From Escherichia phage vB_EcoM_G2540-3: DNA of 64,000 nucleotides. Location: sequence record MK327944.1; one strand, written 5' to 3'. The position numbers and the translations under genes were made by a program. Positions 5,272 to 6,551 of the stretch are shown piece by piece (the stretch's first letter is position 1; each line of letters opens with the position of its first letter). Below the pieces are notes generated by a model. The model was given only the letters and a program-made list of their open reading frames with translations, was not told where the DNA came from and did not search any database.

Positions 5272-5684
5272 CCTTCATCAACAATAGTGTGCGTATTGGC
5301 ATTAACTATTTGCCACCAATCAAAGCGATTAAAACCATACATCGGTTTGTTTTCATTTTCTTTGATAATGTCACGGAGTTCATCTTCGGTAGCGGCTTTC
5401 GCTATTAAATCAGCATATCCACCACGAGGATAATAATTATCACCTGCAAAAAGTAAAAAGTTTGGTGTAATATTATTGAACTCTTCAAGAGTAATAACTG
5501 TTCCTGATGGTAGTTGAACAATCTCTACATATTTATATCCCAATTTTTGAGCAGCATCTACTGCTTCAAGCAAAGTATCATGAGCCCGTCCTATTTGGCA
5601 ATTTGGCTTTTTAGATGGATTAGCCTGATAATCCGCGTACACTTTATACATTCTATTCACCTTTAGAAATTTTATCCATAACAA
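5268..5684 (-). CDS. hypothetical protein (start uncertain)
   Basis: 138-aa ORF; internal Met at MYKVYADYQ may be the true start. Confidence 0.5.
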   Translation of the reverse strand: MLWIKFLKVNRMYKVYADYQANPSKKPNCQIGRAHDTLLEAVDAAQKLGYKYVEIVQLPSGTVITLEEFNNITPNFLLFAGDNYYPRGGYADLIAKAATEDELRDIIKENENKPMYGFNRFDWWQIVNANTHTIVDEG

Positions 5685-5838
5685 TAGCGATTAAACCAAT
5701 TAAAAATGCTACTACAAGTGAAAACACATTTTCTGCTGTAGTCAATAATCCGCATATAAATCCAACAAACATTGAAAAACTAAAAGCGGAAGCAGAAATT
5801 GCAATAGCAACATTTCGAATTAATTCACAACGTTTCAT
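5653..5838 (-). CDS. small two-helix membrane protein, first cassette of the IP-locus array
   Basis: 61-aa hydrophobic ORF preceded by the same promoter/hairpin module as the IP genes. Confidence 0.5.
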   Translation of the reverse strand: MKRCELIRNVAIAISASAFSFSMFVGFICGLLTTAENVFSLVVAFLIGLIAIVMDKISKGE

Positions 5839-5896
5839 TTTATTCTCCTCAGTAGTTGATAGGGTAATAATATCACCACCCTATCTAAAAGTAAAC

Positions 5897-6130
5897 TTAT
5901 TTTTTACGAAAAATTGATTTATATTTATCAGCCCATTTCTCGATGACTTTTTCTGGTCCATAGATAACAAAATAATCACCAAACTCTTCACCACCGAGCT
6001 GACCGAAATTATCTAATGCATCACGAAGAACTCCATGAGGCATTTCGCCCATTTTATCTTTCTTGCCAATGTAAATAAACTCAACTTTTACATCAGCAGC
6101 TTCAGCAATAAATTCTTGATAAGTTTTCAT
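5897..6130 (-). CDS. internal protein (IP-like) with N-terminal capsid-targeting sequence
   Basis: MKTYQEFIAE matches the T4 internal-protein targeting/prohead-protease signal; track ORF starts 6 codons earlier. Confidence 0.7.
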   Translation of the reverse strand: MKTYQEFIAEAADVKVEFIYIGKKDKMGEMPHGVLRDALDNFGQLGGEEFGDYFVIYGPEKVIEKWADKYKSIFRKK

Positions 6131-6190
6131 TTTATTCTCCAATTTCACATTTGTTTTGATAGGGTAATAGTATCACTACTAAAACCCCGT

Positions 6191-6220
6191 GTAAACAACT
6201 TTGTGAAATTATTTTAAATC
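6191..6220 (-). repeat. 30-nt junction repeat, copy 1 (stop codon, UP element and GTTTAC -35)
   Basis: Identical 30-mer gtaaacaactttgtgaaattattttaaatc also at 6522-6551. Confidence 0.9.
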
Positions 6221-6466
6221 TTCTAATCGTTTCTTCATCTTAGAACCGTTCTTAGCGATTTCTCCTGCATCAGAGCATAATGCTAAAAGTGCTTTAACTT
6301 TAGTTTGGTCTCCTTTAAAAGATGAAGGATCGACTGCAGCAGCAAGTTCTTTAATACGAGAAAAAAGACGCTCAGCTTCAGCTAAAGCCATTCCAAGCTT
6401 TACTTCCATACCATGAGAAGATTCAGTGATAATAGTTTCTGTAGCAAACTCTTTGAAAGTTTTCAT
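6209..6466 (-). CDS. internal protein (IP-like) with capsid-targeting sequence
   Basis: N-terminus MKTFKEFATE resembles the same targeting signal; C-terminus DLK-stop lies in the 30-nt junction repeat. Confidence 0.65.
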   Translation of the reverse strand: MKTFKEFATETIITESSHGMEVKLGMALAEAERLFSRIKELAAAVDPSSFKGDQTKVKALLALCSDAGEIAKNGSKMKKRLEDLK

Positions 6467-6521
6467 TTTTATTTTCCTAATTAATTTTGATGAGGTAATA
6501 GTATCACTACCTCATCAGTAT

Positions 6522-6551
6522 GTAAACAACTTTGTGAAATTATTTTAAATC
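6522..6551 (-). repeat. 30-nt junction repeat, copy 2
   Basis: Identical to 6191-6220. Confidence 0.9.

Follow-up and report, generated by a model that had tools for sequence, protein, structure and literature searches.

The window analysed here is the whole 64,000-nucleotide (64 kb) stretch of Escherichia phage vB_EcoM_G2540-3 (MK327944.1), and our subject is a run of three small minus-strand genes that lies between gene 57B and the tRNA genes, each gene being preceded by a similar promoter/hairpin module (Table 1). The original prediction, made from the sequence alone, had read this run as three cassettes for internal proteins (IPs) and had left their cargo without names. The three open reading frames (ORFs; 5653-5838, 5897-6130 and 6209-6466) were recovered as described. 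Two of them are IP genes, ip5 (phrog_3499) and ip6 (phrog_8111), and the third, a 61-amino-acid gene without a capsid-targeting leader, is trna.4 (phrog_1692), which leaves two IP cassettes rather than three. The first gene is annotated as Ip5 in phages RB51 and RB14 and as ipV in GiZh; the second appears as ip6 in VR26, ipVI in GiZh and lp6 in e11/2. The flanking genes carry the same names in other phages (57B in T4, T6 and GiZh; trna.4 in T4, e11/2 and GiZh). The order 57B, ip5 (ipV), ip6 (ipVI), trna.4, trna.3, trna.2 and tRNAs is annotated in e11/2, GiZh and T6, and T4 has the single gene ipI at the same site between 57B and trna.4.

A 2.1-kb stretch covering the locus matched 809 phage records, nearly all of them from Tequatrovirus and its relatives, and the source phage is a Tequatrovirus. 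At least 80% of the stretch is found in 207 records, with vB_EcoM_112 (e11/2) as the best match (97.7%). The locus is very probably the hyperplastic internal-protein ('ipI') locus of T4-like phages, situated between 57B and trna.4 and in the T6-type configuration of ip5 followed by ip6. The ipI loci of T6, T2, RB14, RB51, GiZh and e11/2 have the same flanks, gene order, three modules and duplicated 30-nucleotide repeat (30-mer), and T6-type loci are 94-98% identical to the window over 2.1 kb at the DNA level, with point differences only. The closest alleles of the two genes are found in different phages: Ip5 is 100% identical to the copy in vB_Eco_Some, while Ip6 is 100% identical to the KAW1E185/R5505 copy and about 80% identical to the commonest allele. 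The locus described here is therefore a slightly different combination of alleles. Searches with tblastn found relatives of Ip5 in 496 phage records and of Ip6 in 245.

Table 1. Genes, modules, promoters and hairpins at the internal-protein locus and upstream of it in the window
Feature	Position	Strand	Basis and remarks
gene 1	7237-7962	minus	
T4 late-promoter consensus TATAAATA, inside gene 1	7593-7600	minus	motif match
57A	6995-7237	minus	
57B, conserved upstream anchor	6540-6995	minus	Pfam PF23474 Acb1, E 2.6e-60; phrog_755
module 1, before ip5	6467-6551	minus	30-mer at 6522-6551; AGGA Shine-Dalgarno
module 1 promoter	6526-6521 (-35), 6503-6498 (-10)		TTTACA; 17-nt spacer; TG-extended TACTAT
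module 1 hairpin	6488-6517		13 bp; -10 enclosed
ip5	6209-6466	minus	85 aa, MKTFKEFATE...; phrog_3499 'internal head protein', E 7.8e-50
module 2, before ip6	6131-6220	minus	30-mer copy at 6191-6220; GGAG Shine-Dalgarno
module 2 promoter	6195-6190 (-35), 6172-6167 (-10)		TTTACA; TACTAT
module 2 hairpin	6161-6188		interrupted stem
ip6	5897-6130	minus	77 aa, MKTYQEFIAE...; phrog_8111 'internal virion protein', E 1.8e-50
module 3, before trna.4	5839-5896	minus	GTTTAC at 5896-5891; -10 TATTAT at 5872-5867; GAGGAG Shine-Dalgarno
module 3 hairpin	5858-5885		12 bp; module without 30-mer
trna.4	5653-5838	minus	61 aa, predicted membrane protein; phrog_1692, E 6e-35

Comparison with ipI, ipII, ipIII and other T-even IP genes, which had been proposed as a check, gave matching leaders and identified the genes as ip5 and ip6. 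The leader of Ip6 (MKTYQEFIAE) agrees with that of T4 IPII and IPIII at 10 of 10 residues, and the first seven residues of Ip5 (MKTFKEF) are those of T4 IPI (7/7). When the window was scanned in six frames for the capsid-targeting motif, ip5 and ip6 were the sole matches. In T4, the first ten residues of IPIII suffice for transport into the prohead core (PMC9026906, PMC3012670), and gp21 removes the leader after an L/I-x-E motif (PMC9026906). The (L/I)-x-E motif is present in Ip6 as I-A-E10, while Ip5 has two candidate gp21 sites, A-T-E10 and I-T-E15, the second of which fits (L/I)-x-E. The I-T-E tripeptide at residue 15 of Ip5 also occurs in the T4 IPI leader at residue 19, which we take to be the place where T4 IPI is cleaved (I-T-E19). 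Packaging and cleavage of Ip5 and Ip6 are predicted from their sequences: the leader of about ten residues would place the precursor in the scaffolding core of the prohead, the prohead protease gp21 would cut the leader off after (L/I)-x-E, and the mature protein of about 7.5 kDa would stay in the head and then be injected together with the DNA. The predicted mature products are 7.5-7.7 kDa in size, with isoelectric points of 9.2 (Ip5) and 6.8 (Ip6).

With respect to function, Ip1, Ip2 and Ip3 of T4 are inhibitors of GmrSD type IV restriction enzymes, each acting on a different one, and a further 'at least 10' Ips have been reported without a known target (PMC12373910). By analogy with T4 Ip1-Ip3, Ip5 and Ip6 most likely each neutralise one specific host defence nuclease. 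A literature search for Ip5 and Ip6 within the set of papers available turned up no phage paper. Pfam gave no above-threshold match for Ip5, Ip6 or the trna.4 product, and a sequence search of the PDB with Ip6 and Ip5 returned chance-level matches only (E >= 0.04). The AlphaFold2 model of Ip5 (pLDDT 81) consists of two long helices forming a helical hairpin, and it was left out of the fold search since shapes of this kind match indiscriminately. The single-sequence AlphaFold2 model of Ip6 is alpha/beta and of low confidence (pLDDT 66). Foldseek found no match for it in the PDB with E <= 0.001, the TM-score being 0.55 at most; given the low confidence of the model and the lack of a match, no fold was assigned to Ip6.

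Some relationships of Ip6 to other IP families were apparent as well. The relationship between Ip6 and IP family F11, found in loci L031 and L032, extends along the whole protein (hhalign 97%, E 1e-11). A C-terminal GP..I(E/D).W..K motif links family F11 to family F3 (hhalign 94%, residues 36-57 versus 53-74; F3 loci: L006, L011, L015, L018, L022 and L024), and the motif is also visible by eye in Ip6.

The product of the third gene starts with MKRCELIRNV and has two hydrophobic segments. For comparison we used a set of loci consisting of 36 from IMG/VR, fetched via 57B, together with T4, T6, GiZh, e11/2 and the window. The trna.4 gene was found next to 33 of the 37 loci scored, namely those of T4 and T6 and 31 others. 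It is a conserved gene that lacks a targeting leader and has an early promoter of its own, and it forms the constant anchor on the downstream side; it is neither an internal-protein gene nor a cassette.

Alignment of the three intergenic modules, another check proposed beforehand, bore out the shared promoter and hairpin in all three and placed the 30-mer in the modules before ip5 and ip6 only. The core GTTTAC-N14-20-GTGATAYTAT, which supports the repeated module that the original prediction had seen before each gene, has exactly three matches in the window, one upstream of each gene, with 0 expected. A consensus scan gave TTTAC(A/T), a 17-nt spacer, TACTAT or TATTAT and a TG-extended -10 in three of three modules, and all three likewise agree with the T4 early promoter consensus (A/T-rich upstream sequence, GTTTAC, 17-nt spacer, TAnnnT). 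The consensus TTTACW-N17-TAYWAT given for PST and T4 promoters (PMC4122927) also fits each of them. Module 3 shares with the other two just the GTTTAC, the hairpin, the -10 and the Shine-Dalgarno sequence, and its right half is also found in T4 in the region upstream of trna.4. Each gene would thus have a T4-type early sigma-70 promoter and a ribosome-binding site of its own. In time-resolved RNA data for T4, the transcripts of ipI, ipII, ipIII and trna.4 fall into the early class and those of 57A and 57B into the middle class (PMC9697503 supplements), which puts an early start between 57B and ipI. The T4 intergenic stretch between 57B and ipI is 100% identical to the last 95 nt of module 1 up to the ATG, so that use of the promoter in the present phage may be inferred from the T4 timing and the identity of module 1.

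Early promoters of the GTTTAC type whose -10 is enclosed by a strong hairpin occur at two further places in the window, both on the minus strand: at 63803-63775 (z = -6.0), upstream of a 125-amino-acid ORF at 63373-63750, and at 2708-2679 (z = -6.7), upstream of a 197-amino-acid ORF at 2014-2607. The design is therefore not private to the IP locus. GTTTAC promoters without a hairpin are located at 56923 and 3045. The Shine-Dalgarno sequences of the three genes differ, with GGAG for ip6 (6131-6145) and GAGGAG for trna.4 (5839-5852) versus AGGA for ip5. The T4 endoribonuclease RegB cuts GGAG in early mRNAs, and on this basis the cassettes might differ in their sensitivity to RegB.

The two copies of the 30-mer GTAAACAACTTTGTGAAATTATTTTAAATC, located at 6191-6220 and 6522-6551, agree at every base, as had been noticed, and the identity in fact extends one base further to 31 nt. 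No other copy was found in the window with up to 3 mismatches allowed (0 expected from 100 shuffles). The repeat had been thought to encode the last two codons (L-K) and stop of the upstream gene; it holds three codons and the stop (GAT TTA AAA TAA, D-L-K-*), so that the last three codons and stop codon of 57B lie inside the upstream copy. The claim that the cassettes are bounded by this repeat holds for the modules before ip5 and ip6 and fails for the module before the third gene.

One way to obtain such a repeat is a local duplication of a gene with its promoter, which would make ip5 and ip6 tandem paralogues and the 30-mer the scar of the event. A direct repeat (D1: 95 nt, 77% identity, spacing 331 nt) and the common start MKT(F/Y)xEF of both proteins would agree with this. 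Past the leader, however, Ip5 and Ip6 are unrelated and belong to different PHROGs; the pair (families F4 and F2) is absent from the 25 best hhalign family pairs listed, most of which match over no more than the first 12-20 residues; and the predicted folds differ, Ip5 being all-helical and Ip6 alpha/beta. Moreover, either gene can be found without the other in other phages (loci L035, L036 and L017). We consider a duplication origin highly improbable, and it was rejected on the different PHROGs and the hhalign comparison of families.

Comparison with other phages supports the insertion, deletion and replacement of cassettes at the modules, in keeping with the shuffling of capsid-targeted IPs proposed in the original prediction. 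In the 37 loci where both anchors are present, 57B and trna.4 are separated by 83 to 1667 nt, with between 0 and 5 cassettes in the gap; the shortest gaps (L009, L010) contain one module and no gene, and the longest (L020) contains five genes. Fifteen protein families are found in these loci, nearly all beginning MK(T/S)(Y/F)xEF, and in hhalign comparisons between most families the match ends at residues 12-20, which is the leader, the pair of Ip6 and F11 being the exception. Module 1 is the same before T4 ipI and before ip5 in the window. The module in front of T4 trna.4 is made of the left part of module 2 and the right part of module 3, joined within the shared GTGATACTATTACCCTATC. In L036 the arrangement is 57B-ip6-trna.4, with ip5 gone exactly between the 30-mers, as an exchange at these two repeats would leave it, and in L035 a different family occupies the same position. 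The same kind of module also precedes T4 ipIII, ipII and denV.

These patterns suggest how the locus may work. The modules of 60-95 nt, including the 31-nt repeat, part of which lies in the final codons of the gene before it, would supply short homologies for the T4 recombination system. Whole cassettes of promoter and gene could then be gained, lost or swapped with the expression of their neighbours undisturbed.

Exchange of cargo is also suggested between sites. The window's ip5 and ip6 both lie inside one of two IP loci, the one between 57B and trna.4, the other being located between e and denV. In Mosigvirus-type phages, Ip5 homologues of about 50% identity adjoin the lysozyme gene e, at this second IP locus (for example VR25, KP007361, 58965-59213; slur03, NC_042129, 105909-106157), which indicates that one and the same family of cargo has changed place between these loci.

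Several points weigh against this explanation of the locus. In more distant relatives, several IP genes come directly after 57B or after one another without any module; the module would then help shuffling but not be required for residence in the locus. Recombination at the modules is read from mosaic patterns, and selection acting on the UP element and the stop context, instead of a recent exchange, could account for the perfect 30-mer. As for the cargo, the results from Pfam, PDB sequences and Foldseek suggest no biochemical activity for Ip5 or Ip6. In the multi-cassette loci L017, L019 and L020, a family F1 gene was seen to have the T4 late-promoter consensus TATAAATA upstream (...CTGTATAAATAAGG...) and not the early promoter/hairpin module, and other IP genes there start right at the preceding stop codon, with no module between.

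Some of these observations would equally be explained if the repeats were ordinary regulatory sequence. Strong T4 early promoters look alike, the 30-mer would be maintained by selection on the UP element, the -35 and the stop codon, and recombination would be an incidental by-product. The presence of promoter-plus-hairpin arrangements outside the IP locus (63803-63775 and 2708-2679) and before T4 denV agrees with this explanation, as do the IP genes of other phages that have no module at all. Yet an exact identity of 31 nt that includes coding bases exceeds what a promoter consensus needs, and the chimeric modules and the repeat-bounded indel show that exchanges happened there. An ordinary regulatory origin is possible, if not the explanation that we would favour, and it departs from cassette exchange solely on whether shuffling is a selected property.

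Both the architecture and the idea of shuffling were described by Repoila et al. (1994), according to the citations of that work in PMC2839356 and PMC4122927. The original prediction is thus a correct rediscovery of a published design. The T4 ipI locus has the same position, an identical upstream module and a capsid-targeting leader, and ipI is flanked on both sides by an early promoter overlapping an inverted repeat, as is the case here. The 1994 paper (EMBO J 13:4181) reportedly dealt with ten IP ORFs sharing a conserved 11-residue leader, and is said to have described about 70 bp of flanking sequence with an early promoter and an overlapping inverted repeat. In the window, too, an inverted repeat overlaps the promoter, since the hairpin encloses the -10 in three of three modules. 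The T4 locus differs in having one cassette, ipI, as opposed to two different ones, and in its downstream module, which is a recombinant of window modules 2 and 3. The mature T4 ipI protein inhibits GmrSD.

All three modules form stable hairpins (-17.4, -16.2 and -16.0 kcal/mol; z-scores -4.6, -3.7 and -3.4). Only two modules had been credited with a hairpin; the middle one folds too, with an interrupted stem. The pairing that had been described and its compensatory changes at two positions (GATGAGGTA/TACCTCATC versus GATAGGGT/ACCCTATC) stand, but the coordinates given for it (5861-5888 and 6488-6515) were 1-3 nt off, the hairpins being located at 5858-5885 and 6488-6517. Related loci yielded 54 unique modules; z is below -2 for 47 of these and below -3 for 43, and the median is -4.6. 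Their stems vary by lineage, with at least 8 different ones that include GATGAGGTA, GATAGGGTA, TAGGACTA, GGTCTATAG, GGGCT, GTGTAGGGATA and GATGGGATA. In an ungapped alignment of related sequences anchored at the -10, in which the register of one lineage lies 3 nt upstream, the covariation score of the mirror-symmetric helix was 0.257 as compared with 0.196 +/- 0.013 in shuffled alignments, 0 of 500 shuffles reaching the observed score, and the mirror-symmetric register beat every slid register; the relatedness of the sequences calls for the usual caution. Because the mirror-symmetric model over the 48 anchored modules is diluted by stems lying 3 nt further upstream, we place the main weight on the z-scores of individual sequences.

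Stem-loops of a comparable kind are known from promoter-early stem-loop (PeSL) cassettes, described in RB49/phi1, PST/T4 and nt-1/KVP40 (Arbiol 2010, PMC2839356; Comeau 2014, PMC4122927). Like the window modules, PeSLs combine an A/T-rich stretch, a sigma-70-type promoter, a stem-loop and a Shine-Dalgarno sequence, and are found between small variable ORFs in hyperplastic regions. PeSLs are proposed to recombine with each other, which was shown for RB49 by inverse PCR (PMC2839356, PMC4122927), and the ORF indels and replacements that such recombination gives are also seen in our comparisons (chimeric modules, the ip5 indel, 0-5 cassettes). The PeSL stem-loop, however, is GC-rich, precedes the promoter and acts as a terminator, whereas the stem in the window is AT-rich, straddles the -10 and has no U-tract. 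A GC-rich terminator stem-loop upstream of the promoter is not found in the window modules, and Arbiol et al. regard the T-even IP elements as analogues, not homologues, of PeSLs (PMC2839356).

If the PeSL model nevertheless applied, the hairpin would be a terminator or attenuator of the upstream gene, and the module a terminator-plus-promoter insulator that makes the cassettes independent units. Stem-loops of RB49/phi1 PeSLs did terminate in reporter assays (PMC2839356). The hairpins here are stable, 47 of the 54 unique modules have z < -2 and the stems covary; furthermore, folding of the sense strand gives slightly higher stability than folding of the antisense strand (38/54, p = 0.01, for sequences that are not independent). 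On the other hand, none of the three stems is followed by a U-tract (...CATCAAAATT, ...CTATCAAAAC and ...CTATCAACTA), so that the hairpin is not a standard terminator, and a terminator scan found none at the locus. The stem also overlaps the -10 instead of preceding the promoter, and the stems of the T-even IP elements are described as weaker and AT-rich by Arbiol et al. (PMC2839356). We regard termination or attenuation of the upstream gene as a possible, though not a likely, role for the hairpin.

A further reading is that the hairpin has been selected as a structure and has its own function, rather than being a side-effect of the promoter sequence. It is suggested by the fact that pairing is kept while the stem sequence changes freely, and we hold it to be rather unlikely. 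RNA made from a module's own promoter would hold just the 3' arm of the stem. The late-promoter consensus in gene 1 could feed late read-through RNA across 57A-57B-ip5-ip6 at the time when proheads are built, and on such transcripts the hairpins would be transcribed whole. On late or upstream read-through RNA the hairpin could insulate or stabilise each cassette, and attenuation is another candidate role. At the DNA level, a cruciform or single-strand hairpin could determine where an enzyme such as T4 endonuclease VII makes breaks, and thereby focus recombination at the cassette boundaries. If such a role were true, the locus would be a structure-guided rather than a passive exchanger of cassettes.

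Integron cassettes offer a working analogy for cassette exchange at the IP locus, being arrays of small adaptive genes, unrelated to one another, at a fixed site and bounded by imperfectly conserved hairpin-forming repeats where cassettes come and go. They are usually promoterless, whereas the cassettes in the window each have a promoter, and their movement depends on a dedicated tyrosine recombinase that recognises folded attC, while general homologous recombination is assumed here. We know of no dedicated recombinase for the IP-locus cassettes.

The locus can be seen as a textbook case of a large virulent phage that keeps a small stock of interchangeable anti-defence proteins for injection. 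The shared leader makes any cargo packageable, and the shared promoter module makes it expressible and swappable. The practical value of the present analysis lies in annotation, with the genes named as ip5 and ip6. Of the Ips considered here only Ip1-3 have known targets, and nothing unusual in this particular sequence bears on the targets of Ip5 and Ip6 or on the role of the hairpin.

Judged by its Pfam match, the upstream anchor 57B is an Acb1-family anti-CBASS nuclease. Most phage records label it 'RNA ligase' or 'hypothetical'. The IP cassettes directly adjoin this second counter-defence gene, and with ip5 and ip6 beside an anti-CBASS acb1 the stretch would form a counter-defence island.

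Beyond trna.4, the minus strand carries trna.3, trna.2, eight tRNA genes and a GIY-YIG homing endonuclease. An Rfam search of 4800-7400 at a permissive threshold gave nothing beyond one tRNA. The homing endonuclease (221 amino acids, 3602-4267, minus strand) is located between tRNA-Met and tRNA-Arg and corresponds to SegB in T4 and e11/2. The set of 8 tRNA genes is unlike those of T6 and GiZh, which indicates that the neighbouring tRNA region is also variable.

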